A stretch of DNA of 64,000 nt from Acidimicrobiales bacterium (GTDB lineage: Bacteria > Actinomycetota > Acidimicrobiia > Acidimicrobiales > Aldehydirespiratoraceae), in contig JAWKIR010000002.1 of the NCBI GenBank assembly GCA_041394245.1, forward strand, positions 2,858,970 to 2,922,969, in the 5' to 3' direction. A program made the translations under genes and the position numbers. Shown in pieces: positions 29,045-62,890 of the stretch. The notes beneath the pieces were generated by a model. It made no database searches. It worked only from the letters and a program-made list of their open reading frames with translations, and was not told the origin of the DNA. The number at the start of each line of letters is the position of its first letter. Within the stretch, counting starts at the first letter, position 1.

Positions 29045-29887
29045 CGGGTCGCCGCTGGTCCCCGCGATGATCCGCTTGCGGATCGCCGACGAAACGGTGT
29101 CGATGAACACCACCACGGCGATGGTGATGATGAGCACGGCGCCGACCTGGGGGAAGTTGCGGAAGTTGAGCTGTGCGATCAGCTCCGAGCCGACGCCGCC
29201 GGCCCCGATCATGCCGAGCACGGCGGAGGCGCGGACGTTGATCTCGAAGCGGAACAGCCAGTAGCTGGTGATCTGCGGCATCACCTGGGGCAGCACGCCC
29301 CAGCGGACCCGTGAGACGAATGTGCCGCCGCAGGCCTCGACGGCCTCGACGGGACCGTGGTCGGACGACTCGATCTCCTCGCTCGAGAGCTTGCCCAGCG
29401 TGCCGATCGAGTGGAGCCCGATGGCGAGGGCGCCGGCCCACGGGCCGAGGGGCACGACCCCGAGGAGCACGACGGCGACGATCAGTTCGGGTACGGCCCT
29501 GATCACGTTGAACAGCTGGCGAATGGGCAGACGAACGAAACTCGGCGAGACGTTGTTCGACGCGAGGAACGCGAGTGGCAGCGACAGCGTTGCCGCGATG
29601 ACGGTGCCGACCCACGCGATGTAGACCGACTCGAGGACCTTGCCGAGCACGCCCCGGTCGATCTCCGTGGCGAAATCGGGTGGCCACATCAGGCGGATGA
29701 TCGCCCACGCATCGCCGGGGGCGGTGCGGAGCCGGGTCCAGGATGCGTCGAGTCCCGAGACGCCCCAGACGAAGGCCAAGCCGATCACCACAACCATCGC
29801 GAGGCGGAAGACCTGCGACCCACGCGGGGGAGCGGGTCGGGTGCGGGCCGCGGTGTCGGCCTGATCGGGCGGAATCGTCGCCGTCAT
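28985..29887 (-). CDS. phnE: Phosphonate ABC transporter permease
   Basis: Start ATG at 29887 (TGATG junction with the upstream permease). EAVEACGG...RWGVLPQV and NVRASAVLGMIGAGGVG motifs. Confidence 0.85.
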   Translation of the reverse strand: MTATIPPDQADTAARTRPAPPRGSQVFRLAMVVVIGLAFVWGVSGLDASWTRLRTAPGDAWAIIRLMWPPDFATEIDRGVLGKVLESVYIAWVGTVIAATLSLPLAFLASNNVSPSFVRLPIRQLFNVIRAVPELIVAVVLLGVVPLGPWAGALAIGLHSIGTLGKLSSEEIESSDHGPVEAVEACGGTFVSRVRWGVLPQVMPQITSYWLFRFEINVRASAVLGMIGAGGVGSELIAQLNFRNFPQVGAVLIITIAVVVFIDTVSSAIRKRIIAGTSGDPSRMMELIRDLGGRGWSARP

Positions 29888-31578: not shown

Positions 31579-32772
31579 TCAGCCGGGGGGCTCGGTGATA
31601 CCGAGGGCCGTGGCGGCTTCACGAACGACGTCGAAGTCGGCGTCGTTCGCCGGTGCGATGTCGGTCCAGCTGTAGATCTCGTCGAAGACGGCTTCGCCCT
31701 CTTCGGTCTGCAGATACGCATCGATCGCGTCGTAGATGGCGTCCTTCAGCGACTGCGGGAGTGCGGTGCGGACGGCGACGACGTCGTTCGGGATCTCGTC
31801 GGTGATCGAGAACACGATGACCTTCTCGCCGACATCGGGGTTGACGTCGTCGATGGTGCTGCGGGCGTCGTCGAAGGACAGGCCGAACTTGGCGCTGCCG
31901 TCGTAGACGGCCGTGACCGCGGCATCGTGGCCACCGGTGAAGATGGGGGTGATACCGGTCGCGGGATCGATGCCCAGGTTGGTGAGGTCGAGCGCCGGGA
32001 AGAGGTAACCCGAGGTCGAGGTCTCCGAGGTGAAGGCCACGGTCTCGCCGGCGACCGACGACAGGTCGCCGATGCAGCTCGTGCCGGAGCTGATCACGTC
32101 GCCGTTGTCGTTGACCTTGCCGAACTGGGGACCGTCGTCGCCGAACTCCACACCGACCTGCAGGGCCACTGCTTCGAGTGCCGGGACCTGGACGATCTCG
32201 CCGTTCTGGTTCTCGAGGGCGGTCGCCTCGGCGAGGGTGCCCTCCTGACAAACGGACGGGTCGTTGGTGAACCACTGGCCGTGGTAGGTGGCCGAGCCGA
32301 AGCGCACCGACTGGATCAGGGGCTCGATGTTGCCGAACTGGTCCTTGCCGAGCGTGTAGCCGAACGGGCCGAAGGCGCCGAGGTCGGTCTGGTCGGTTCC
32401 CATCGAGGTGACGAGGCCGGTGTAGTCGGTGGTGACCACGCCGTTGACGGTGATGCCGAGGGCCTCCTCGAGGACTGCGATGAACGGGTCGATGTTGTCC
32501 TGCAGCGTCGCCTGGTCCTGGCTGGGAACGAAGCCGAACGTGATCGACTCGGGCCAGTCGGCCATGTCGTCGTCGGCCATGTCGCCGCTGTCGTCGGCCA
32601 TGTCGCCACTGTCGTCGCTCATGTCGTCGCTGGCGCTGTCGTCGGCCATGTCGCCGCTGTCGTCGGCTGAGCTGTCGTCGGCGGCATCGCCGCTGTCGTC
32701 GTCGCCGCACGCAGCGGCGAACAACGCGAAGCCGAGCAACAACGCCAGAAAGCGCATCATTGTCTTGTTCAT
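31579..32772 (-). CDS. phnD: Phosphonate/phosphite ABC substrate-binding lipoprotein
   Basis: ATG at 32772 with GGAGGGA upstream. Lipobox LFAAAC. Acidic linker, then FGFVPSQD...GAFGPFGY (PhnD-type). Confidence 0.85.
   Translation of the reverse strand: MNKTMMRFLALLLGFALFAAACGDDDSGDAADDSSADDSGDMADDSASDDMSDDSGDMADDSGDMADDDMADWPESITFGFVPSQDQATLQDNIDPFIAVLEEALGITVNGVVTTDYTGLVTSMGTDQTDLGAFGPFGYTLGKDQFGNIEPLIQSVRFGSATYHGQWFTNDPSVCQEGTLAEATALENQNGEIVQVPALEAVALQVGVEFGDDGPQFGKVNDNGDVISSGTSCIGDLSSVAGETVAFTSETSTSGYLFPALDLTNLGIDPATGITPIFTGGHDAAVTAVYDGSAKFGLSFDDARSTIDDVNPDVGEKVIVFSITDEIPNDVVAVRTALPQSLKDAIYDAIDAYLQTEEGEAVFDEIYSWTDIAPANDADFDVVREAATALGITEPPG
32557..32706 (-). repeat. In-frame acidic low-complexity repeat (DDSGDMADD-type) in the PhnD linker
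   Basis: Repeated gtcgtcggccatgtcgcc(g/a)ctgtc units encoding about 50 D/S/G/M/A residues after the lipobox Cys. Confidence 0.8.
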
Positions 32773-51972: not shown

Positions 51973-53052
51973 TCAGGAGCCGACCGGTCGAGGGAGCGGA
52001 CCCGAGAAGTCGATGGCGATGATCCTCAGGGCGCGGTGGCCCGGATAGCCCGGCGCCTCGAGCCACGCGTGATAGGCGAGCAGCGCCCGCCCCGACCGGT
52101 CGACGAAGAACTCGGCGCCGCCCGGACCTTCCGCCCCGGGGGAAGAGGCGATGATCGGCCCCTCGAAGGGCTTGTCGCACGGGCCGACGGCGGACGTGCA
52201 ACGGGCCAGTCCGATGCCGTAGGCGGCCTGGTTGTACCAGTTCCCCGAGTAGGCGAGCCAGTACGTGCCGTCGACGATGTGCATGCTCGGGGCCTCGACG
52301 TGGGGGTATTCCCAGTCCTGGTCGGTGGCGATGAGGCGCACTGGCTCGCCGATCAACGAGCGTCCGTCCGGGGCGAGTCGTTGGCTCCAGATCGATGATT
52401 CCCGACGCAGGGTGATGCCATCGTTCTTCCAGAGCAGGAAGATCGAGCCGTCGTCATCGACGAAGGGGCTCGGATCGATGGCGCCGCCGAGATCGGTGGG
52501 ACAGAGCCAGGGCTCGGTGCTGACGTCGACGAAGGGGCCGTCCGGTGCGGCGCCTTCGGCGACCGAGAGGCAGTGCTTGTCGGTGCCGTCGACCCTGGCC
52601 GTGTAGTAGAGGAGGTAGTGGTCGTCGACGGCGAGCACCGCGGGCGCCCAGCTCGACAGTGGGGTCGCCCAGCCGGGAAGCGTTGTGAGTGCGTCGGTCG
52701 GACCCGACCACTCGGCCAAGGTCGGCCCGTCGAGTCGCTGCACCTGTACGAACCCCGACGCCGTGGCGTAGGCGTGGTAGCCGTCGTCGTCGGCCAGCAC
52801 GAACGGGTCGGGGAAGTCCCGATCCCACACGAGTCGATCGTCGTCGACCCGATCCTCGGGAACAGTGGTCGTGGTCGTGGTCGTCGTGGTGGTGGTGGTC
52901 GTCGTCGTCGTCGTGGTGGTCGTCGTCGTCGTGGTCGTCGTCGTCGTGGTGGCCGTCGTGGTCGTCGATGGTGAGCCAGCGGTGTCGCCGGCGCCGCACC
53001 CGCCGAGCAGGGCGAGCGCCGCGATCAGTACCGGCACCCAGGGCCGCGGCAA
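51973..53052 (-). CDS. GH43-family glycoside hydrolase lipoprotein with poly-Thr linker
   Basis: TTG start. Lipobox LLGGC. FPDPFV, WAPAV...YYT, DPSPFVDDDG, EAPSM...YWLAYS motifs. Confidence 0.8.
   Translation of the reverse strand: MPRPWVPVLIAALALLGGCGAGDTAGSPSTTTTATTTTTTTTTTTTTTTTTTTTTTTTTTTTTVPEDRVDDDRLVWDRDFPDPFVLADDDGYHAYATASGFVQVQRLDGPTLAEWSGPTDALTTLPGWATPLSSWAPAVLAVDDHYLLYYTARVDGTDKHCLSVAEGAAPDGPFVDVSTEPWLCPTDLGGAIDPSPFVDDDGSIFLLWKNDGITLRRESSIWSQRLAPDGRSLIGEPVRLIATDQDWEYPHVEAPSMHIVDGTYWLAYSGNWYNQAAYGIGLARCTSAVGPCDKPFEGPIIASSPGAEGPGGAEFFVDRSGRALLAYHAWLEAPGYPGHRALRIIAIDFSGPLPRPVGS
52864..52965 (-). repeat. Imperfect ACC/ACG triplet repeat encoding TTTT-A-T(29)
   Basis: Counted codon by codon: 29 consecutive Thr codons (52864-52950), one Ala, then four Thr. 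Confidence 0.9.
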
Positions 53053-53724: not shown

Positions 53725-54213
53725 TCAGCCGAGTGCGCCCGACGCGAGCAGTGAGGTGATCGTCCCTGCGACGAACACGGCGAGCATCACCGCCATCGTG
53801 GCGGCACCGATGGTGACGGCGCGGCCGAGGTCGCTCATGTGGCCCCCGAGGACGTCGATCCGTTCGCCGATGCTGTCCATTCGCATGCTCAGGCTGTCCA
53901 TGCGCGAACTGAGCGATGCCCCCTGTGCGGCGACGAGTCGGGTGAGCTCCTGCAGGTCGCTCGAGGTCTGATCAGCCCGCAGCGTCAAGGCTTCGATGCG
54001 TCCCTCGACCCCGCCGATGCGTCCCTCGACGCCGCCGAGTCGGTCCTCGACGCCGCCGAGTCGGCGGTCGAGCAGCGCGATGTCGTCCTTGGTGGCGAGC
54101 TGCGTCCACGGGATCGGCGGCATGGACTCCATCATGGCATCCGCAGCGCTCTCGTCCATCAGTTCGATGAGGTACTGGCGGATACGAAGGCGGGTGTTCT
54201 CGTCGACGGGCAT
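53725..54213 (-). CDS. Tail-anchored coiled-coil protein, paralogue A (DUF1640/XhlA-like)
   Basis: MPVDENTRLRIRQYLIELMDESAADAMMESMPPIPWTQLATKDDIALLD, GGVExRL heptads, C-terminal TM. RBS AGGAGGGG. Confidence 0.7.
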   Translation of the reverse strand: MPVDENTRLRIRQYLIELMDESAADAMMESMPPIPWTQLATKDDIALLDRRLGGVEDRLGGVEGRIGGVEGRIEALTLRADQTSSDLQELTRLVAAQGASLSSRMDSLSMRMDSIGERIDVLGGHMSDLGRAVTIGAATMAVMLAVFVAGTITSLLASGALG

Positions 54214-54279
54214 CGGCCCCTCCTGGTTCGAGAGTTGGAGGGGAAGTCCGTGTCGTGACCCTAGGACGAGTGTGTGACA
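54214..54279 (-). promoter_or_regulatory. Conserved upstream module A: TGTCACA palindrome, 8 nt, TAGGGT -10, anti-SD/SD hairpin
   Basis: Minus strand reads TGTCACAC-N8-TAGGGT...CTTCCCCTCC-13 nt-GGAGGGGccgATG. Arms at 54237-54243 and 54217-54223. Confidence 0.5.
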
Positions 54280-54420
54280 GAAGGTCGTGGTGGTGAATGC
54301 GATCCCCGGAAAACGCCGGTTGGCGGTGTGCGGGTGCGCTCGCATCGGTGATGGCCCTGCCATGTTGAAGTCGACGTACTCCGCCGCAGCGTCGTCGCAC
54401 GCGTCGAGTCTGCTGCTGCA

Positions 54421-54528
54421 CTCAGCCGCGTCTCGGCTGTGCCGCGAAGTCGCTGAGTCGTTGCATGACGGCATTGCTCTCGTCGTCGAAGACGCCTCCG
54501 TAGACCCCGAGGATCAGCGCCGGGTTCG
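54421..54528. repeat. Left copy of a 108-bp direct repeat (70 bp perfect), equal to the integrase 3' end
   Basis: 54459-54528 is identical to 58319-58388. 54421-54432 is identical to 58281-58292. Constant offset of 3,860 bp. Confidence 0.9.
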
Positions 54529-55375
54529 AGTGGCCGGCCCACTTGGCCGCGGCACGGGGCGACGCCAGCGAGCGGCTCCACATCGCGACGCACGTGTGGC
54601 GGAGATCGTGGATCCGGAGGCCGTCGAGCCCGGCGGCTTCGGTGGCCGGTTTCCAGATGCGTCGCCGGAAGTTGGCGTCGCCGAGCGGCTTGCCGTTCGG
54701 TGAGGTCCAGATCAGCTCGTCGGGTTCGACGCCGCGGCTCGCCATGTCGATGACGAGCTCTTCCATCACGAAGCTCGGGACGGGGACCGTCCGGCGCCCG
54801 GCCCGTGACTTCGGTGGGCCGAAGGTCGGTGTGCCGTCGCGGCTGAGGGTACGCGTTTCGGTGACGTCGATCGTGGTGGTCGCCGCGTGGACTCGCTTGG
54901 CCCGGAGGGCTGCGAGCTCGCCGTTGCGGAGACCGGCGTAGGCGCCGACGAGCACGAAGGTGCGATACGGCGCGGCGATCGCATCGGCGAGGCGTTCGAC
55001 CTCCGCGGGTTCGAGGAACGTCGGCTCCTTGTGGGGCACTTGGGGGAGCGAGAGCCCCCGCGTCGGGTTGTGTTCGAGCAACCGGGACCGCACGGCGATG
55101 TCGAGGCTCTGGGCGAGCAACCCGGCGGCCTTGCGCACAGTGCGGGGGGACAGGTCGGTCGCCGCGAGCTCGGCGACGAAACGCTGGGCGTCGCGAAACC
55201 CGATCCGGTCGATCGCCACGTCGCCGAAGAACGGCTCGAGATGACACCGGAAGATCGATTCGTCGCGCAGACGGGTCGAGGGTCGGACACCGACCCTCGT
55301 CGAGATGAATTCGGCCCACCAGTCGCGAAACGACGGCGCGGGTTCCGCAGGGAGGCCCAGCGATGGCGCGTCCAC
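54422..55375 (-). CDS. Tyrosine recombinase / phage-type integrase
   Basis: GTG at 55375. SAM-like N-terminal domain, AYAGLRNGEL (R), HDLRHTCVAMW (HxxR), GHSNPALILGVYGGVF (Y). Confidence 0.9.
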   Translation of the reverse strand: MDAPSLGLPAEPAPSFRDWWAEFISTRVGVRPSTRLRDESIFRCHLEPFFGDVAIDRIGFRDAQRFVAELAATDLSPRTVRKAAGLLAQSLDIAVRSRLLEHNPTRGLSLPQVPHKEPTFLEPAEVERLADAIAAPYRTFVLVGAYAGLRNGELAALRAKRVHAATTTIDVTETRTLSRDGTPTFGPPKSRAGRRTVPVPSFVMEELVIDMASRGVEPDELIWTSPNGKPLGDANFRRRIWKPATEAAGLDGLRIHDLRHTCVAMWSRSLASPRAAAKWAGHSNPALILGVYGGVFDDESNAVMQRLSDFAAQPRRG

Positions 55376-55389
55376 GGGTCTGGCGCAGT

Positions 55390-55608
55390 TCAGGCGAGGG
55401 TGGTGGCCAGCACCGCGACGACGCCGACGATCCGCGTCATCATGGCGATGACGATCATGCCCGTCGTCTCGGCGCACCGCACTGGCAGCAGCCCTTCGAG
55501 CAGCGCCATCTCGCCGGAGAAGTTGTGGATCTGGGGGTCGATGCGTTTCGTTCCTGCGTCGGAGAGGCGCCGGTGGAGGCGGAGGCGTACTGGTTCGTCG
55601 ACGGACAT
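55390..55608 (-). CDS. Short paralogue D of the tail-anchored family (72 aa), 14 nt upstream of the integrase
   Basis: MSVDEPVRLRLHRRL... and a C-terminal TM (MIVIAMMTRIVGVVAVLATTL). Lacks the coiled-coil middle. Confidence 0.5.
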   Translation of the reverse strand: MSVDEPVRLRLHRRLSDAGTKRIDPQIHNFSGEMALLEGLLPVRCAETTGMIVIAMMTRIVGVVAVLATTLA

Positions 55609-55671
55609 GGGTTCCCTCGGATCGGAGTGCAAGGAGGGAAGTGACGGCGAACCTACGCGTCGGGTGTGACA
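55609..55671 (-). promoter_or_regulatory. Conserved upstream module D
   Basis: TGTCACAC-N8-TAGGTT...CTTCCCTCC-15 nt-GAGGGAAcccATG. Arms at 55634-55640 and 55612-55618. Confidence 0.45.
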
Positions 55672-55726
55672 GTCCTGCGCCGACGGGATGCCGGCTCGCT
55701 CGGTCCGTGGATCCCCGAGGTGAGTG

Positions 55727-56260
55727 TCAGAGATTGAGCAGACCCACGGCCACGCCGGTGACGGCGAGGAACAACGTGATCATGGCGAACACGAGGATCC
55801 GGGTGGTCTCCATCCATCGCAACGACAGCCGCCCCTCCATCGCGAGGAGTTGCCCCTCGAAGACCGAGCGGCTGCCGTCGAGCTGCGCGCCGAACCCTTC
55901 GAGCTTCGCGCCGACCCCCTCGAGCTGGGCATCGACGGTGTCGAAGCGCCGGTCCATGGCGTTGAACCGTTGGTCGACGTCGTCGAACCGTCGGTCGACG
56001 ATGTCGAGGCGCCGGTCGACGGTGTCGAGGCGCCGGTCGACGGTGTCGAGGCGCCGGTCGACGTTGTCGAGGCGCCGGTCGACGTTGTTGAATCGTTGGT
56101 CGACATCGTTGAACCGCAGGAGCATCTCGTCGCGGCGAGCGATCTCCGACCAGTCGAACGGCGGCATGGATTCGAGTATGGCATACGCCACCTCGGGTTC
56201 GAGCTCGTGATCGATCAGCCATTGGCGGAAACGGAGGCGAGCGTCCTGCTCAGGGGTCAT
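55727..56260 (-). CDS. Tail-anchored coiled-coil protein, paralogue C
   Basis: MTPEQDARLRFRQWLIDHELEPEVAYAILESMPPFDWSEIARRDEM, about nine VDRRLDx heptads, C-terminal TM. Confidence 0.7.
   Translation of the reverse strand: MTPEQDARLRFRQWLIDHELEPEVAYAILESMPPFDWSEIARRDEMLLRFNDVDQRFNNVDRRLDNVDRRLDTVDRRLDTVDRRLDIVDRRFDDVDQRFNAMDRRFDTVDAQLEGVGAKLEGFGAQLDGSRSVFEGQLLAMEGRLSLRWMETTRILVFAMITLFLAVTGVAVGLLNL
55931..56119 (-). repeat. Nine tandem 21-bp in-frame repeats (heptad repeat VDRRLDx)
   Basis: gtcgacggtgtcgaggcgccg-type units. Units at 56015-56035 and 56036-56056 are identical. Confidence 0.9.
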
Positions 56261-56319
56261 GGGTCCTCCCGGATGGGGTGGGAGGGGAAGTGGACCCACC
56301 GTACGCGCCCGGTGTGACA
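56261..56319 (-). promoter_or_regulatory. Conserved upstream module C
   Basis: TGTCACAC-N8-TACGGT...CCCCTCCC-9 nt-GGGAGGAcccATG. Arms at 56280-56285 and 56265-56270. Confidence 0.45.
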
Positions 56320-56593
56320 CTGGGGGCCGGTCCTCGCGTCGAGCGGTTCTTTGAGAACGCGTCGTCTCGACCGGCCAACAGATACAGAACGCGCCGCCGT
56401 TGGTGGGGAAGAGCGGGATCCAACAGCGCGGGAACCCGATCGCGACGCCGGCGAGCACGCGTGCGATCCACGACCAGTGGCGAGCCGAGCTGGAAGGAGG
56501 CTGAAATCGGTTGGTCGCGTTCGAAGCTGCACCGGTTGCACCCCACTGAGGGGAGCCCAGGAGAATTCATCGAAGCCGGTGTCTCCAGTGTGA

Positions 56594-57001
56594 TCAGGAG
56601 CTGGTCGCGAGGACGCTGACGATGAACACCGCAATGGTGATCGCGAGGGTGGCGGCGCCGATCGTGACCGCCCGGCCGAGGTCGGTCATGTGGTTGCCCA
56701 ACGCGTCGATCCGGCCGCCGATGCCGTCCATGCGCGTGCCCAACGAGGTGCCCTGCTGGGCGACGGCCCTGGTGAGCTCCTGCAGATCGCTCGACGTCTG
56801 GTCCATCCGCGCCGTCAGCGAGTCGAGGCGGTGCTCGACGCCGCCCAAGCGTGTGTCGAGCGCGGCGATGTCGTCCTTCGTGGCGAGTTGCGTCCACGGG
56901 ATCGGTGGCATGGACTCCATCATGGCATCCGCGGCGGCTTCGTCCATCAGCTCGATCAGGTACTGGCGGATACGAAGTCGGGTGTTCTCGTCGGCGGGCA
57001 T
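56594..57001 (-). CDS. Tail-anchored coiled-coil protein, paralogue B
   Basis: MPADENTRLRIRQYLIELMDEAAADAMMESMPPIPWTQLATKDDIAALD is nearly identical to the N-terminus of A. C-terminal TM. Confidence 0.7.
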   Translation of the reverse strand: MPADENTRLRIRQYLIELMDEAAADAMMESMPPIPWTQLATKDDIAALDTRLGGVEHRLDSLTARMDQTSSDLQELTRAVAQQGTSLGTRMDGIGGRIDALGNHMTDLGRAVTIGAATLAITIAVFIVSVLATSS

Positions 57002-57064
57002 CGGCCCCTCCTTGGTCGACGTGTTGGAGGGGAAGTGGGCGCACGCTACGGCGCGGCTGTGACA
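57002..57064 (-). promoter_or_regulatory. Conserved upstream module B
   Basis: TGTCACAG-N8-TAGCGT...CTTCCCCTCC-14 nt-GGAGGGGccgATG. Arms at 57026-57032 and 57005-57011. Confidence 0.5.
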
Positions 57065-57089: not shown

Positions 57090-58232
57090 TCATGAAGCAA
57101 GCGGTCGACGAGCTGCCAGGTCGGCCCGGTTGGCCGCCGCGACGCCGGCGCCGTAGCCCGACCCGTCGAATGTGGCGTGAGACGGGCGCAGGCGCGAGAG
57201 GGAAGGGAAGACCTCGTCCACCATGCGGTCGACCGCAGCCGCGCGGCTGGCGAGGACGGGGAGGAGTGGTCCGTCGGCCGCGGTGGTAGCGGCGGCCCGC
57301 TCGGTGGCCCGTGCGTTCTCCGCGGACAGGCGCTCGTCGATTCGTCCTGCGAATCCGATCAGGAATGAACGCCGAAAGGCGCGCGTCGTCGACTTGCCGT
57401 AGCCGTCGGTGGTCGATCCGTGGCGCAGCATGGCCCGGGACGCCTGAACCAGCAGCGAGGTGAACAGGAGTTCGGTCGCTTCGAGGTCGATGGTGTAGCC
57501 GATGACCGTGGCCAACCCGAGGCCACTGTGGCGAATGGCCGTCGCCCGATTCGACCGCGCGATCACGCTGAGTAGCCCGAACTTCTCACGGTCGTAGGGC
57601 CGCTCGACGGCCAGCCGGATCGCGTCGGGGCCCGTGTGCGGCCCGGAGCCGGCGGCGCTGCGCAACGCGTCGGCGAGCGAGTGATCGGTGATGAGCGCCT
57701 GGGCCTTGGCGGTGAACGCCTCGGCTTCTGCCTCGAACGCACTCGACTCGGCCTTGGCCAGCATGGCGCGCACCTTCCTCAGGATGTCGTGGTCCAACGC
57801 TCCGCCCGTTGCGGGCGACGCATCGCCAACGGAACGTGGCGCCGACGCATCGGCCTCGCCAGGGAGGGGTCCCAGCTGCCGCAGCCCGGGCAGGAAGGCC
57901 AGTCGAGACCACAGTTCGAGTCGGTCGGTACGCCAGCCCCGATGGCGGGACTCCACGGCTTCGTCATCGTCGCCCGCCACATTTCGGACGTGGTTGATCT
58001 GCACCTGCCACCGGGGCGAGAGTCGATCGCCGTAGCCCTGAACCTCGTGTTCGCGCAGGATCAGCGTGGCAGCGAGGCGCAGGGCGGTCGGGGTGAGGTC
58101 ATGGTCGACCATCGCCAACAGATCGCCCGGCATCCAGCCGATCTGCCAGGCGTAGGTGATGAGCGCGACGAGGCCGGCATCGAGTTCGTCGGGATCTTCG
58201 GGTGGGCGGTGTGGTGTGAAGTGGTTCGGCAT
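57090..58232 (-). CDS. DUF2786-domain protein
   Basis: ATG at 58232 with GAGAGGGTGGA upstream. ILRKVRAMLAKAESSAFEAEAEAFTAKAQALI is the recalled DUF2786 signature. TGTGACA palindrome at 58254-58260. Confidence 0.7.
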   Translation of the reverse strand: MPNHFTPHRPPEDPDELDAGLVALITYAWQIGWMPGDLLAMVDHDLTPTALRLAATLILREHEVQGYGDRLSPRWQVQINHVRNVAGDDDEAVESRHRGWRTDRLELWSRLAFLPGLRQLGPLPGEADASAPRSVGDASPATGGALDHDILRKVRAMLAKAESSAFEAEAEAFTAKAQALITDHSLADALRSAAGSGPHTGPDAIRLAVERPYDREKFGLLSVIARSNRATAIRHSGLGLATVIGYTIDLEATELLFTSLLVQASRAMLRHGSTTDGYGKSTTRAFRRSFLIGFAGRIDERLSAENARATERAAATTAADGPLLPVLASRAAAVDRMVDEVFPSLSRLRPSHATFDGSGYGAGVAAANRADLAARRPLAS

Positions 58233-58281
58233 GCGTCCACCCTCTCGCGCCGGTGTGACACGGCTGAGCGGCTTCGTCAAC

Positions 58282-58388
58282 TCAGCCGCGTCGCGGGGGT
58301 GACGCGTAGTCGCTGAGCCGTTGCATGACGGCATTGCTCTCGTCGTCGAAGACGCCTCCGTAGACCCCGAGGATCAGCGCCGGGTTCG
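58282..58388 (-). pseudogene. Orphan 3' fragment of an integrase gene (right copy of the direct repeat)
   Basis: Encodes ...NPALILGVYGGVFDDESNAVMQRLSDYASPPRRG*, matching the last ~35 codons of the intact integrase. No upstream integrase sequence. Confidence 0.75.
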
Positions 58389-58464: not shown

Positions 58465-58842
58465 ATGGCGAAGGGTGCCTCGACCCCCACCCGAGTGAAC
58501 GCGGACGTTGCGGCGGCTGCTGCCGCGGTGGCGCCCGCCGAGAACCGGACGACAGCTGAGCAGATCAACTACTGGGTCAGGCTCGGCATGCAAGTCGAGC
58601 GGGCGGCGTCCGCCACCAGCCGACGTGTGCTGGCCGTCGTCGCCGGTGACGCCCAGTTCTCGACCCTCGACCCGCACGACCGAACAGCCGCCCACGCGTC
58701 GATCGATGCCCGGATGGCGGAGCGTGTGGCCGACCAGCGATTCGGGCCCGCCGCGCGCAAGGCGGGTCGCGTGACGGTGTCGATCGACGACGACGGCGCA
58801 CTCGTCGAGATCGCGCCGGACGGTACTCGTCGGCTCCTGTGA
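58465..58842 (+). CDS. ParD-like type II antitoxin
   Basis: AGGAG 7 nt upstream. AENRTTAEQINYWVRLGMQVE matches the recalled ParD_like motif. Confidence 0.7.
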   Translation: MAKGASTPTRVNADVAAAAAAVAPAENRTTAEQINYWVRLGMQVERAASATSRRVLAVVAGDAQFSTLDPHDRTAAHASIDARMAERVADQRFGPAARKAGRVTVSIDDDGALVEIAPDGTRRLL

Positions 58843-59408
58843 GCCGTCTCGATCTGATTGCAGGACCGAACGGCGCAGGAAAGTCCACGCTCTACGAGCG
58901 AGTGATCGCCCCTGACCGGCCTGGTCTGCCCTTCGTCAACGCAGACCGCATCGCACGCGAGCGATTCCCGGGCGCGGAAACAACGGAGGCCTACAAGGCT
59001 GCGGAGATCGCCGCAAAGGCGCGGGAAGCGCTCATCGCCGCCCGCCTCGACTTCTGCACCGAAACCGTGTTCTCGCATGAGTCGAAGGTCGACCTGGTCG
59101 CGAGCGCTTCTTCATCTGGCTACGACGTCGTCTTGCACGTGGTCATGATCCCTCTCCGTCTGTCTGGGCCCCGAGTCGCCGCTCGTGTCGCCAACGGAGG
59201 ACACGGCGTACCGGCCGAAAAGCTCGAGACGCGGTACGAGCGCCTCTGGCCGCTTGTCGTGGCCGCAGTGCCGCTGTGCCATCGTGCGGTGTTCTACGAC
59301 AACTCCGCAGACGCGGGCCCGCTCGAGGTCGGCTCCTACCGCTACGGCGTCCCCGACTACGAACCTCGGTGGCCCGCGTGGTCCCCGGATCCAGTCCGAA
59401 CACTCTGA
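58839..59408 (+). CDS. Zeta-toxin / COG4185-type P-loop kinase toxin
   Basis: GTGA overlap with the antitoxin. LIAGPNGAGKSTL Walker A. 189 aa. Confidence 0.75.
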   Translation: MSRLDLIAGPNGAGKSTLYERVIAPDRPGLPFVNADRIARERFPGAETTEAYKAAEIAAKAREALIAARLDFCTETVFSHESKVDLVASASSSGYDVVLHVVMIPLRLSGPRVAARVANGGHGVPAEKLETRYERLWPLVVAAVPLCHRAVFYDNSADAGPLEVGSYRYGVPDYEPRWPAWSPDPVRTL

Positions 59409-59771
59409 GCTCTCCGTACGACGGACTCGTCTCCCGCCGGAGTGAGAGTCGACTGCATCTCGTCGTGAGAAGGGGTCGCATGCGCTTCGGGTTTCCGCGA
59501 CTTCCCAACTCGGCGTGTCACACGCTCTCTCTCGTTTCGGGAATCACTGACGAGAGGAGACGTGATGAAGGTGCTGGTGGCACCTGAAGATTGGTGATCT
59601 CGCCGATGCACTGACCGACTCGCTCGAACGTGGCGGCTGGTTGCAGGGAAGTAGCGAGAACGAAACGGTGGCGATGGTGGGCGAGCTCCTGACGGTGCTC
59701 GTGAACATCACGGAGCCGGCCGAGCCGGGGTCAGTTGTTCGCCGGAATGGCGACCTGGCGTATGTCAGATG

Positions 59772-59817
59772 AGGTGTACACCTCATAGGTGTTCTACGTG
59801 TAAGAAGCGTGTAGTCT
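59772..59817 (+). promoter_or_regulatory. vapBC promoter/operator: 12-bp palindrome plus TAGTCT -10, likely leaderless
   Basis: AGGTGTACACCT (59772-59783). TAGTCT (59812-59817) ends 7 nt before the vapB ATG. No SD sequence. Confidence 0.45.
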
Positions 59818-59824
59818 CTGAACT

Positions 59825-60019
59825 ATGGCTCGAACCAACATCGAGATCGACGACGAAACGCTCGACGTCGTGATGCGGCGCTACGGCATCCACACCAAGA
59901 CCGAGGCGGTCGATCTTGCGTTACGGCGGCTCGCCGGTGAACCCATGACGATCGCTGAAGCCTTGGAGATGCGCGGTGCCCGTGCGATCAGCGACGTGCC
60001 GGCTGATACCGGTCCATGA
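59825..60019 (+). CDS. vapB: VapB-family antitoxin
   Basis: [36 protein letters not shown]. Confidence 0.85.
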
Positions 60020-60411
60020 TCCTCGCCGATACTTCGGCATGGGTTGAGTTCGACCGTGCCACCGGCTCTGGCGCCGACGAGCGCCTCGCCGGATTGATCG
60101 AAGCAGGCGGCGGCGACCTTGCCGTCACCGAACCCGTCATGATGGAGGTGCTCGCAGGTGCACGGACCGACCAGCGCAGCAACGAGCTTCGCCGGCTCCT
60201 GACATCATTTCGATGGATCGCCGCCGACCCCGTCGCCGATTTCGAAGGTGCGGCACTGCTCTACCGACAGTGTCGATCTGCCGGCGTCACTCCGCGAGGT
60301 CTCATCGACTGCATGATTGCCACGATCTCGCTGCGATCCGGAGCAGAACTCTTGGCGGTCGACGGCGACTTCGCCGCGATCGCGGAAGTCGTTCCTCTGC
60401 GCCTCGCCTAG
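60016..60411 (+). CDS. vapC: PIN-domain VapC toxin
   Basis: ATGA overlap. [12 protein letters not shown]..., E43, and the D..IA and DGDF acidic residues typical of PIN domains. Confidence 0.9.
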
Positions 60412-60540
60412 CGCGGGCGGGGTATGAGCCCACGCCGGCGGTGACCGCGGCGTCCCGTCCGGACCGGGCATGTTCATCATGGCGGTCATACCCCCTTGGA
60501 CAAGGATGGACTCAGTCAGCCACTCGACCAAGGAGCTATC

Positions 60541-60738
60541 GTGAACGCTGTGCCTGAAGGCAAGATCTGGACCACAGATGAACTCCTGGCGATGACGCCG
60601 AACGAACGCCACGGCGTTGTCAACGCTGGCATCGTGACGGACGTGCACGCGGTCCCGCCGGACCTTCTCGAGCGTGCGCGCTCCGACATACGCGCCCACA
60701 TCGCCGACGACGAGGCAGCGACTACCACCGAGCCGTGA
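60541..60738 (+). CDS. Small hypothetical protein (65 aa), first gene of a TA-like pair
   Basis: GTG at 60541 with AAGGAG 5 nt upstream. No family recognised. Confidence 0.45.
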   Translation: MNAVPEGKIWTTDELLAMTPNERHGVVNAGIVTDVHAVPPDLLERARSDIRAHIADDEAATTTEP

Positions 60739-61046
60739 ACACGCGGCGGCCGGTCAAGGTCGACGAGCGCTTCCTCGAACTTCTCGACACCCAACTCGGC
60801 AGTGAAGGCGGCCCGAACGGCGAGCCCTCGGCGACGGACTTCCTGCTCGTCGAGCTGCCGCCGATCGCGGAGCGGTTTGCCACCGCGTTCCATGAACTGA
60901 TGACGCCCATTGCCGATCGCCCGGACTATCGGTCGGTCCTGAGTGTCGGCACCCTTGTTCCACGGGTCCTCGAAACCGGTGTCGTCGAAGCCGACGGCGC
61001 GGTCAATCGCATCAGCATCCGCATCGACATGGAGGCCGGGTGGTGA
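60735..61046 (+). CDS. Hypothetical protein (103 aa), second gene of a TA-like pair
   Basis: GTGA overlap with the upstream gene. Loosely ParE/RelE-like layout. Family not recognised. Confidence 0.45.
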   Translation: MNTRRPVKVDERFLELLDTQLGSEGGPNGEPSATDFLLVELPPIAERFATAFHELMTPIADRPDYRSVLSVGTLVPRVLETGVVEADGAVNRISIRIDMEAGW

Positions 61047-61237
61047 GATCACCCAACCTTCTCGTCGGTTGACGAATCCGAGTATCGGACCGGTTCTTCT
61101 CCTCAGAACGAGTCGCGCGGCCGGTTCATAGAGAGTAGTCTCGGGCGCTCCGATCCCGACGGCATGGGAGCGGTCAGGGGAACTGCGCCCGGAGAAACCG
61201 TCCCGTCCGCGCCGTGGAGGATCCCTAGGCTGCGAGA

Positions 61238-62890
61238 ATGGCAGCCGACCACGAACAGATAGGCGATGAGGTCACCGAGGGCGTTCTGCGCGGCTACTTC
61301 AAGACGGGCAAGCGATTCGTGCCTCCGATCATGGCGTTGCCGGGTGCTATCTCTTCGGACTGGGTGAAGTCGAGCCTGCCTGATCTCTTGTGGCCGATCC
61401 TGTTGGTGTCGCAGTTCGGTGACCGGGGCTCTGTCATGTTTGCGATGGCGCAGCGGGCCGTCATCGAGGCTGTGGGCACGGACACGTTGGAGACCGAAGG
61501 CATCGATCTCGACGGTCGCCTCACCAGCCTCGAGCGGGCGTCAGACTACCGCGACGTCGTCGCCGCTGCGGTTATGGCTCAGCCTGAGGCCTACGAGCTG
61601 TTCGATCCTCTGGTTCTCGGAGTCATGGCCGCCTACGGCGATGCTCTGCCCGGTGCCTGGCTGTTTGAACGAGCGCTCGAGCTGCAACCCGGTCTGAGTA
61701 TCGAGGAGTCGCTTGACCTCCTTGCGTCTGCCGTCTTGCGTGTCATCGAGGATCGACATCTGAACGCCCTTGCCAAGGCGGCGCCCTTCGGATGGGCCAT
61801 GCAGATGGGCAAGATGCGATTCCCGTCCGACCTTCCTGCTGTGGACTCTCTTGTGGGCTATCCCGGGGTGCCTGAGAACGTGGACGAGGCCGACGCCTTC
61901 ATCCTTTCAACGTTCCTGGCGATGAACATGATGGTCCCGGAACAGACTCAGCGGGCGCGTGACGACTGGTGTCGCATGTTCTGGAATCTCAACTGGGCTC
62001 TCACGCCGTGTATCCCAGCAGAGGTTGCCGCTGCGGAAGACCCCGAAGACTCCGCCGAAACGCGTCGAGGTGGGGGCCAAGCCGCTCCTCGGAACGTGGC
62101 AAGTGACCCGAGCGGCGCCAGCCCGCTCGCAGAAGGGGCTGCGGGCGAGAACGACCTGGAAGAGGCCTCGCCATTGGACGTCGCGGCTTCGATGTACGAG
62201 GAGTTTATGGAGAAGATCCTCGCTCGTGACGCGCAAGTCGACTTGTACTCGCCGGCCAAGTTCGAGGTCCTATCGGGGCTTGTCGCCCGCGCATTCCACT
62301 CCGTCGTCGGGCTTCTACGCGCTCCGCACCTATGGACGGGGGAGCAAGCGTCCGGGGTACTGCGGTCGTTCCGGGAGTCCCGCATACACATCGCGTGGAT
62401 GTTGAAGAACGAGGAGGGGGGTTCGTTCGATCGCTACCAGGACTACGGTCTGGGCAAGCGCAGGTTGTACGAACAGGTTCTCAAGGGCCTTGTGCCGGAT
62501 GACGAGGAAGCTCCTCCTGACCTTCAGACGCTCATCGAGACAATCGAGAGGCAGACCGGCGGCGATCACGGAGCGATGTTCCAGACGGTATCCGTCGAGG
62601 CCACCTTCTCTGGCAAGAACCTGAGGGCGATGGCCGCAGAGGTGGGTCTCGCCGACGAGTACCGAGCCGTCTATCAGCGGGAGAGCGGTGTGACGCACGC
62701 CGAGTGGTGGGCGTTGGAGGACTACGCAATGCAGCGGTGCCTTAACCCGCTACATCGGTTCCACTGGCTGCCTACGTTCAGTGCGGCCGCCGCCCCGACC
62801 AGAGGGTTCCCAGTCGTCCTCCTGGATGCGTTCGAAGAACTCGTCGCGCTGGCAGCCGAAGGGCTCTCGCGCACCGAGGGACCGGAGTAG
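61238..62890 (+). CDS. Uncharacterised 550-aa protein, C-terminal half DUF5677-like
   Basis: Unknown N-terminal domain, acidic disordered linker, then GVLRSFRESRIHIAWML...YRAVYQRESGVTHAEWWAL, resembling the recalled DUF5677 pattern. Lower GC3 codons. Confidence 0.6.
   Translation: MAADHEQIGDEVTEGVLRGYFKTGKRFVPPIMALPGAISSDWVKSSLPDLLWPILLVSQFGDRGSVMFAMAQRAVIEAVGTDTLETEGIDLDGRLTSLERASDYRDVVAAAVMAQPEAYELFDPLVLGVMAAYGDALPGAWLFERALELQPGLSIEESLDLLASAVLRVIEDRHLNALAKAAPFGWAMQMGKMRFPSDLPAVDSLVGYPGVPENVDEADAFILSTFLAMNMMVPEQTQRARDDWCRMFWNLNWALTPCIPAEVAAAEDPEDSAETRRGGGQAAPRNVASDPSGASPLAEGAAGENDLEEASPLDVAASMYEEFMEKILARDAQVDLYSPAKFEVLSGLVARAFHSVVGLLRAPHLWTGEQASGVLRSFRESRIHIAWMLKNEEGGSFDRYQDYGLGKRRLYEQVLKGLVPDDEEAPPDLQTLIETIERQTGGDHGAMFQTVSVEATFSGKNLRAMAAEVGLADEYRAVYQRESGVTHAEWWALEDYAMQRCLNPLHRFHWLPTFSAAAAPTRGFPVVLLDAFEELVALAAEGLSRTEGPE

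Follow-up and report, generated by a model that had tools for sequence, protein, structure and literature searches.

Four paralogous genes, here called A, B, C and D, lie in a 64,000-nucleotide stretch of DNA from an uncultured, marine-type Acidimicrobiales bacterium (GenBank assembly GCA_041394245.1, contig JAWKIR010000002.1), and each is preceded by a short leader in which a pyrimidine tract can pair with the Shine-Dalgarno (SD) sequence of the gene itself. This whole stretch is referred to as the window. Coordinates are those of its plus strand, and all four genes lie on the minus strand. Gene A (coding sequence 53725..54213) encodes a protein of 162 amino acids with a conserved N-terminal domain, coiled-coil repeats and a C-terminal transmembrane helix; the product is identical to MEZ5246294.1, from an Acidimicrobiales metagenome-assembled genome (MAG). 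Gene B (56594..57001) encodes 135 amino acids, gene C (55727..56260) 177 amino acids with DRRLD-type repeats, and gene D (55390..55608) 72 amino acids, the last being an internally shortened paralogue. The conserved ADAMMESMPP segment is absent from D (55390-55632 region). The common, strongly conserved N-terminal part covers about 45 residues, MPxDExTRLRIRQYLIELMDE..AADAMMESMPPIPW; variable coiled-coil repeats come after it, and the C-terminus is a hydrophobic helix.

In front of gene A (ATG at 54211-54213) the SD arm GGAGGGG occupies 54217-54223 and is separated by a 13-nucleotide loop (54224-54236) from the tract ACTTCCCCTCC (54237..54247), whose anti-SD arm CCCCTCC (54237-54243) pairs with the SD in the minimum free energy (MFE) structure. 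The arrangement is repeated at gene B (ATG 56999-57001), with SD arm GGAGGGG at 57005-57011, a 14-nucleotide loop at 57012-57025 and the same tract ACTTCCCCTCC at 57026..57036, including the anti-SD arm CCCCTCC at 57026-57032. Gene C (ATG 56258-56260) has the SD arm GGGAGG at 56265-56270, a 9-nucleotide loop at 56271-56279 and the tract ACTTCCCCTCCC at 56280..56291 with the anti-SD arm CCTCCC at 56280-56285. For gene D (ATG 55606-55608) the SD arm is GAGGGAA (55612-55618), the loop has 15 nucleotides (55619-55633), and the tract, ACTTCCCTC(C) at 55634..55642, provides the anti-SD arm TTCCCTC at 55634-55640. In 47-nucleotide windows the MFE and centroid folds of each of the four leaders are this SD hairpin, with energies of -10.7 to -15.3 kcal/mol. 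The arms and loop lengths (13, 14, 9 and 15 nucleotides) are exactly those tabulated in the initial annotation of the window, which had described them as a ribosome-binding-site (RBS) switch with arms that change together.

Three blocks are conserved when the upstream regions of A to D are aligned: TGTCACA, TAnnnT and (C)ACTTCCC(C)TCC. Nine more bases lie between TGTCACA and the TAnnnT hexamer, so that the motif reads TGTCAC-N10-TAnnnT. The tract is nearly identical in the four leaders (ACTTCCCCTCC, with one C more in C and one C fewer in D). The anti-SD thus lies within a conserved 11-nucleotide pyrimidine tract and is not a freely varying arm; the SDs of the four genes meet this near-invariant tract in differing registers.

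The first two blocks have the appearance of a promoter. A motif scan placed the -26 element TGTCAC of gene A at 54274..54279 and its -10 hexamer TAGGGT at 54258..54263, with a predicted transcription start (+1) at an A near 54251. For gene B the two elements are at 57059..57064 and 57043..57048 (TAGCGT), and the predicted +1 is 57036, the A of ACTTCC. Gene C has them at 56314..56319 and 56298..56303 (TACGGT), with +1 predicted at 56291, again the A of ACTTCC. In gene D they are found at 55666..55671 and 55650..55655 (TAGGTT), with a predicted +1 at 55642-55643. TGTCAC-N10-TAnnnT occurs four times in the 64-kb window, where 0.19 occurrences are expected, and solely before the four paralogues. 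No sigma-70-type -35/-10 pair and no terminator were found in a consensus scan of 53.6-57.2 kb, and a consensus promoter/terminator scan detected no antisense promoter or terminator.

The PafBC consensus is tGTCgg(N10)tA(N3)T, in which PafB contacts the GTC at -23 to -28 and a -35 element is not used (PMC8635444; PMC6789036). When +1 is set 7 nucleotides past the -10, TGTCAC of the four paralogues falls at -28 to -23, and there is no canonical -35. These sequences thus have the bipartite motif geometry of PafBC-type promoters, sharing spacing, GTC core and position with the PafBC / RecA-NDp sigma-adaptation promoters of mycobacteria (PMC8635444; PMC6789036). They differ from them in having AC in place of GG after the GTC, and in a host that is an Acidimicrobiales MAG. 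The motif suggests a DNA-damage regulon in Acidimicrobiales, and the promoters of A to D would then be inducible by damage.

Homologues were examined in 52 loci fetched from genome and metagenome collections (numbered with the prefix L), in which 57 family starts were located; their leaders form 23 clusters at 70% leader identity. The TGTCAC-type motif precedes 26 family genes in these loci, as well as two long-leader variants (L008, L041). It also occurs before other genes, mostly leaderless ones whose start codon lies 7-8 nucleotides after the -10. Non-family genes with the motif were found at L049:692-760, L051:492-2311 and L016:6868-7112, and on the minus strand of L020 (3617-5869), L014 (364-606) and L023 (1492-2556). 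The leaderless ones include an SF2 helicase (read as RecQ-like), an HNH endonuclease and an Rv0078B-like antitoxin. A small Cys-rich open reading frame (ORF) is also preceded by the motif, as is a DUF4007 gene, in which the first candidate start is 23 nucleotides past the -10. Such leaderless genes support the motif as a genuine promoter and would place +1 at 7-8 nucleotides after the -10. The mRNAs of B, C and D would accordingly have the A of cACUUCC as their first nucleotide, and the mRNA of A would start four nucleotides earlier, giving predicted leaders, from +1 to AUG, of about 31-41 nucleotides. In all 26 TGTCAC-type family leaders (counted by hand) the tract starts 0-7 nucleotides after the expected +1 and never before it. 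The tract should therefore be transcribed, with the hairpin at the extreme 5' end of the mRNA; its placement in the mRNA, first proposed from its position downstream of the -10, is in this way supported by the conserved -10 and by the leaderless genes with the same promoter.

The tract is a conserved feature of the family. The form (A)CUUCCCCUCC is conserved, and a CTTCC-type tract lies 30-41 nucleotides (mostly 33-38) before the start codon in most of the 57 leaders. At the level of leader clusters it is present in 16 of 23, and at the same position in just 4 of the 105 background genes, a set of crude gene calls from the window and related loci (genomes of 68% G+C). It is kept even in distant subfamilies, whose proteins are about 30-35% identical and whose genes have a different promoter, of sigma-70-like type, and a longer leader. 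When minimal leaders (tract to AUG) are folded, the tract lies on the SD zone in about 19 of the 21 tract-bearing clusters, with a mean energy of -9.8 kcal/mol (range -1.9 to -14.7). The cluster-level mean z against dinucleotide shuffles is -1.13 (Wilcoxon p = 4e-5). In partition-function folds the SDs of the family pair upstream with a probability of 0.58-0.69, about twice the 0.28-0.31 of the background genes (p = 5e-4 to 2e-7). In the four hairpins it is the length of the perfect complement that stands out: one of at least 7 base pairs (bp) is found in 2%, and one of at least 6 bp in 6%, of the 105 background genes. Loops are free to vary in sequence and length, and the arms persist. The recurrence of the tract, the shuffle z and the SD-pairing probability together make the predicted occlusion of the SD from upstream a trait of the family. 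The RBS-sequestering architecture that the initial annotation had proposed for four genes thus extends to their relatives: homologues without the pairing had been named as grounds for giving it up, and pairing was found instead in about 19 of 21 clusters. The hairpin is real and conserved; an SD-sequestering stem is in itself a fairly ordinary brake on translation.

Several leaders have features of their own. CGAA(C/T) is enriched in loops just 5' of the SD (54224-54236, 57012-57025, 55619-55633 and homologous loops), and in the zone from -30 to -9, which stands for the loop, CGAA occurs in 25 of the 57 leaders and 7 of the 105 background genes. TCGAAC is also the half-site of the actinobacterial LexA box. 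The distant leaders with a sigma-70-like promoter (L018:3226-3298, L028:3919-3991, L021/L024/L026:3931-4003, L022:3931-4003 and L016:3931-4003) carry an extra 5' hairpin before CAA-CTTCC (TCGCT..AGCGA, TCACT..GGTGA). RNAalifold gives this extra hairpin six pairs, three of them with compensatory changes, and these leaders may be more elaborate structured RNAs. In L008:3864-4003 and L041:1864-2003 the TGTCAC promoter is retained and the leader is about 115 nucleotides long; its CCTCCC tract faces the GGAGG of a 14-codon upstream ORF that ends, as TGAcATG, at the main start. This arrangement may be a translationally coupled version of the SD-occlusion theme. CTTCC tracts were also seen before a DUF222 gene (L013:4007) and before the gene starting at 32772 in the window; both genes are outside the paralogue family, and these tracts were set aside as probably due to chance.

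Whether the two arms change together, as the initial annotation had held, depends on the range of leaders considered. Among A to D they hardly do: the tract is nearly invariant and the register shifts. Across the family they do so modestly. This was seen in a register-free swap test, in which the best duplex of the upstream zone with its own SD zone is compared with its duplexes with the SD zones of other clusters. Own arms are ahead by about 1.3 kcal/mol (1.0-1.6 kcal/mol), with permutation p values of 0.0007-0.014 at the cluster level; in the main setting the energies are -12.1 kcal/mol for own and -10.7 kcal/mol for swapped arms (p = 0.004). The same test on background genes gives z = +0.33, and the family value of -2.77 is reached by 0.3% of 23-gene subsamples. 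Complementary variants can also be read from the leaders. For example, TTCCCTC/GAGGGAA in D corresponds to CTCCCTC/GAGGGAG in L046, CCCTC/GAGGG to CCCTT/AAGGG (L006, L007), and CCCTCG/CGAGGG to CCCTCA/TGAGGG (L040); L018 has CCTCCT/AGGAGG, and further variants of the inner helix are TGTT/AACA (L001) and CGTT/GACG (L005). Within the window, the additional C of gene C and the C missing from gene D each add 1-2 bp to the helix of that gene, and in a 4x4 swap, taken by column, only the SDs of C and D find their best partner in the tract of their own gene. These comparisons argue for modest co-evolution of the arms. The case for the RNA level comes from context and not from wobble pairs.

The stability of the hairpins bears on the way in which they could be used. 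The leaders of A to D were folded from the predicted +1, including 30 nucleotides of coding sequence, with the partition function calculated from 4 to 85 °C. At 4-37 °C the SDs are at most 5% unpaired, and the AUG is mostly open. At 45 °C the mean probability of an unpaired SD does not exceed 0.06, and at 65 °C it does not exceed 0.12. A thermometer-like switch, one of the two forms in which the hairpin had been cast, is implausible in these models, in which stems of 6-7 perfect G+C-rich pairs keep the SD at least 88% paired at 65 °C. For the other form, a switch opened by a factor or ligand, no competing fold, aptamer or trans partner was found in a leader of about 31-41 nucleotides with a single hairpin, no search for a partner RNA being possible. 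In the folds of A to D with 30 nucleotides of coding sequence no mutually exclusive alternative pairing for the tract was seen. The single hairpin has no conserved multi-helix core that could be a riboswitch aptamer, no RNAalifold consensus and no Rfam family. Searches of Rfam at the gathering score gave no match in the whole window, and at E up to 1 the 50-64 kb region gave nothing relevant, with two irrelevant sub-threshold matches; this supports the view of the initial annotation that the hairpin is of no named riboswitch class that could be recognised.

The reading favoured here, to which about an even chance is given, is a constitutive SD-occluding hairpin at the 5' end of mRNAs made from damage-type promoters. 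Each paralogue would be its own transcription unit, with a -10 hexamer and TGTCAC at about -28 to -23 and without a -35. Transcription would start at, or a few nucleotides before, the conserved pyrimidine tract 5'-ACUUCCCCUCC, and the tract would pair with its own SD 9-15 nucleotides downstream to form a stable G+C-rich hairpin of 6-7 bp at the very 5' end. The SD would be hidden and the AUG left free. The likeliest role would be a constitutive brake on translation, under which an mRNA, even when induced, would give little of the membrane-anchored coiled-coil protein; possibly the hairpin would also shield the 5' end of the mRNA. Opening, if there is any, would require a trans-acting factor or RNA processing, and not temperature in the physiological range. 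What the analysis shows is the sequence elements and their conservation, with a fold and a stability that are predicted; the start of transcription, the folding of the hairpin in vivo, its influence on translation and induction by damage are inferred. Such a brake would be sensible for a membrane-anchored protein made from an inducible promoter.

A number of observations weigh against this explanation. With hairpins of -11 to -15 kcal/mol, initiation that depends on the SD would be all but shut off, which raises the question of how the protein is ever made. Individually, the windows of A to D reach a dinucleotide-shuffle z of merely -0.4 to -1.3, and these four copies are related by descent and are not four independent events. 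The duplex energy between the -45..-22 and -18..-1 zones averages -12.9 kcal/mol in the background and -12.1 kcal/mol in the family; at 68% G+C raw duplex energy alone is uninformative. Swapped arms still pair at -10.7 kcal/mol, so that most of the pairing potential is generic, and the longest Watson-Crick run is just 4.9 for own and 4.55 for swapped arms (p = 0.04). In the 4x4 swap every tract of A to D pairs best with the SD of A and B. The tract is missing from three or four leader clusters, and where present it is conserved beyond what pairing requires. Alignment with MAFFT followed by RNAalifold did not find a consensus anti-SD/SD helix in 26 close or 9 distant leaders, since the register of pairing shifts from one lineage to the next and the core pairs are invariant; such pairs hold no information on covariation. 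Finally, the preference for own arms is equally strong when the antisense strand is folded. That strand folds even better because of its composition, and equally so in swapped pairs. Counts of G-U against A-C show no favour of G-U pairs for the sense strand. These results therefore do not distinguish selection that acts on the RNA from an inverted repeat in the DNA.

Some of these points would be expected if the pyrimidine tract were an independent conserved signal and its complementarity to the SD a by-product, an explanation that seems unlikely though it deserves serious attention. The tract could be a protein site, a site for ribosomal protein S1 or standby ribosomes, a target of a G-rich small RNA, or a signal of the 5' end or the initially transcribed sequence. 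It would account for an ACTTCC far more conserved than the 3' arm and held at a near-fixed distance from the AUG (mostly 33-38 nucleotides), and for the A that lies 7-8 nucleotides after the -10, at the expected +1, in 12 of 22 TGTCAC-type leaders measured. Any such tract would pair with any SD of the family at about -10.7 kcal/mol, own arms are not the best partners among A to D, and the family duplex energy equals the background. A by-product should not, however, make own arms significantly better than swapped ones, an effect that background genes do not have. The helix is also extended past the SD core in lineage-specific ways (8 bp in L042, 10 bp in L004, 7 bp in L046), and 3' arms such as GAGGGAA and GGGGAA match the tract better than they match the CCUCC of 16S rRNA. 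With both arms transcribed, a hairpin of -9 to -15 kcal/mol would form regardless. The equal behaviour of the antisense strand and the lack of a sense bias in G-U pairs raise a different alternative, in which the two arms are an inverted repeat in the DNA and serve a dimeric DNA-binding protein as its operator, immediately downstream of the promoter. The element lies at about +5 to +31 (+9 to +35 in A), a frequent position for repressors. This is nevertheless the least credible of the explanations, and only a very slight chance is given to it: arm spacing runs from 9 to more than 20 nucleotides, the register shifts between lineages, and the arms are not equivalent half-sites, the 5' arm being highly conserved and the 3' arm not. 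The distance is moreover fixed to the AUG and not to the promoter, and it is kept with two types of promoter.

The hairpin could also be the OFF state of a regulated switch, a reading regarded as quite improbable. What opens it might be temperature or a ligand, a helicase or chaperone, processing of the 5' end, or a small RNA complementary to the tract. Opening by anti-antisense pairing is exemplified by rpoS and DsrA, and 5' processing by tisB. An opening mechanism would make biological sense of an SD that is predicted to be almost fully sequestered, and recognition could take place at the conserved ACUU overhang, single-stranded at the 5' end, and at the CGAA-rich loops. A damage-type promoter in front of a membrane protein also recalls SOS-induced toxin mRNAs that are translationally inert. 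Temperature is countered by stems that are predicted to remain over 90% closed as far as 65-75 °C, and a ligand by a leader of about 31-41 nucleotides with one simple hairpin and no Rfam match at E up to 1; the lack of an alternative pairing for the tract in the folds of A to D is a further point against a switch. At the other extreme, the pairing could have no function: one fortuitous complement, inherited by four copies, in DNA where C-rich and G-rich runs pair easily at 68% G+C. The paralogy of the leaders, their weak individual z values and background energies that are as strong are all in keeping with this. It is contradicted by a tract and a pairing that are kept down to about 30-35% protein identity while loops and promoter type change, and by family tests against shuffles, swaps and background genes that are all significant. 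The functionless reading is disfavoured and thought very improbable.

Databases say little about the proteins of the family. Sequence searches of Pfam, PHROGs, NCBIfam, PADLOC and PDB returned just coiled-coil noise and weak sub-threshold matches to DUF7310 and XhlA-like families. The family is small, with 63 cluster representatives at E up to 1e-3, and its named matches are all actinobacterial MAGs, nearly all of them Acidimicrobiales. No relatives were found in IMG/VR viral contigs. The exact sequences of B, C and the neighbouring integrase, with the starts used here, are absent from a collection of 15 billion proteins in which A is present; the source annotation may have missed these three or called other starts.

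The region of A to D reads as a mobile-element-like island. A tyrosine integrase gene is found at 54422-55477 and a DUF2786/DUF7168 gene at 57090-58334. A 109-nucleotide direct repeat, 94% identical, occurs at 54420-54528 and 58280-58388; the tyrosine integrase gene contributes one of them as its 3' end, and the second is an integrase 3' remnant. The repeats bracket a 3.86-kb unit, int-D-C-B-DUF2786, with gene A just outside. In sequence this unit looks like the product of att-type repeats or of tandem accretion of a small integrative element. The 3' end of gene D overlaps the longest integrase ORF (GTG at 55477), and the true integrase start is therefore probably further downstream.

Farther along, an ORF with a P-loop motif (58839-59408) appears zeta-toxin-like and another (60016-60411) PIN/VapC-like, both by eye only and with no confirmation from family searches, and a protein of 550 amino acids (61238-62890) matches the PADLOC DitA model (E = 1e-18). 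The 58839-62890 neighbourhood looks like one of toxin or defence genes. In another Acidimicrobiales genome (L053:4966-7697) an integrase, a family gene and a DUF2786/DUF7168 gene adjoin, with zeta-toxin and AbiEii genes nearby. At L054:3934-6435 a photolyase gene is followed by a family copy; immediately upstream of it there is a frameshifted, D-like copy that has the same leader. On the other side of the paralogues, a minus-strand ORF (51973-53052), read by eye as a secreted or lipoprotein-type enzyme, has a run of about 35 threonines coded by an (ACS)n tract at 52856-52985; this is the largest tandem repeat family of the region. Two further candidates in the window were rejected. Occurrences of ACTTCCCC at 29150, 33267, 38811 and 52810, considered as extra leaders, all read as inside coding sequence. 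The possibility that GGAGGGGAAGT is the plus-strand SD of a divergent ORF was dropped for lack of a conserved ORF after it.

As a device the SD-sequestering stem is well known, and the hairpin alone opens no new question. If it works as proposed, it would represent a compact and conserved example of occluded translation in an actinobacterial class that has been little studied and has few members in culture. The promoters, if of the type suggested, would extend to Acidimicrobiales the logic of PafBC or "-26 element" promoters, so far characterised only in mycobacteria, and an uncharacterised family of integrase-associated membrane proteins would become a candidate DNA-damage-response gene under two layers of control. 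A bolder proposal, and a rather doubtful one, is that the leader is a 5'-terminal "anti-SD lock", an undescribed, Acidimicrobiales-specific cis-regulatory RNA on PafBC-type promoters that keeps a multi-copy, integrase-linked coiled-coil protein, anchored in the membrane, untranslated until a dedicated trans-acting opener acts. The opener could be a G-rich small RNA, 5' processing, or an RNA-binding protein with ACUUCC or the CGAA loop as its recognition site. Such a lock would amount to two-key control, by transcription and translation, of a damage-induced function, for example a division inhibitor or a mobile-element function.

Several known systems share parts of this arrangement. RNA thermometers (ROSE, fourU, and the cyanobacterial or hsp17 type) likewise use a single hairpin that hides the SD in a short 5' untranslated region. 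Their stems are weak, mismatched or U-rich and melt at 30-42 °C, in contrast to the perfect stems of 6-7 G+C-rich pairs in A to D, which are predicted to stay closed to at least 65 °C. The leaders have no Rfam match to ROSE, FourU, Hsp17, cspA or other such models, and A to D are not recognisable as heat-shock or virulence genes. The damage-induced toxin mRNAs tisB (with istR-1) and dinQ (with agrB) are likewise made from a damage-type promoter, encode a product targeted to the membrane and have their RBS concealed in 5' structure. Those toxins are hydrophobic peptides of fewer than 60 amino acids, whereas the products of A to D are coiled-coil proteins of 72-177 amino acids with a conserved N-terminal domain of 45 amino acids; the promoter is of the PafBC and not the LexA type, and no antisense RNA gene or processing site was identified. 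Since the genes do not encode small hydrophobic peptides, their leaders bear only a loose resemblance to these inert toxin mRNAs. Stem-loops that stabilise the 5' end of an mRNA, as in E. coli ompA and B. subtilis aprE and ermC, are similar in position, the stems of B, C and D being 2-6 nucleotides from the predicted 5' end. In those stabilisers the SD is normally outside the stem, whereas in A to D it is part of it. The self-inhibitory leader of E. coli rpoS, which is opened by DsrA, RprA and ArcZ, also has an upstream pyrimidine-rich arm that pairs with the SD and leaves the AUG free. Compared with it, the leaders of A to D are very short (about 31-41 nucleotides), the hairpin is 5'-terminal, and there is no sequence relation and no known partner small RNA. 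In their predicted fold, in which an upstream segment pairs with the SD, the leaders of A to D fit the generic form of an SD-sequestering, self-inhibitory leader.

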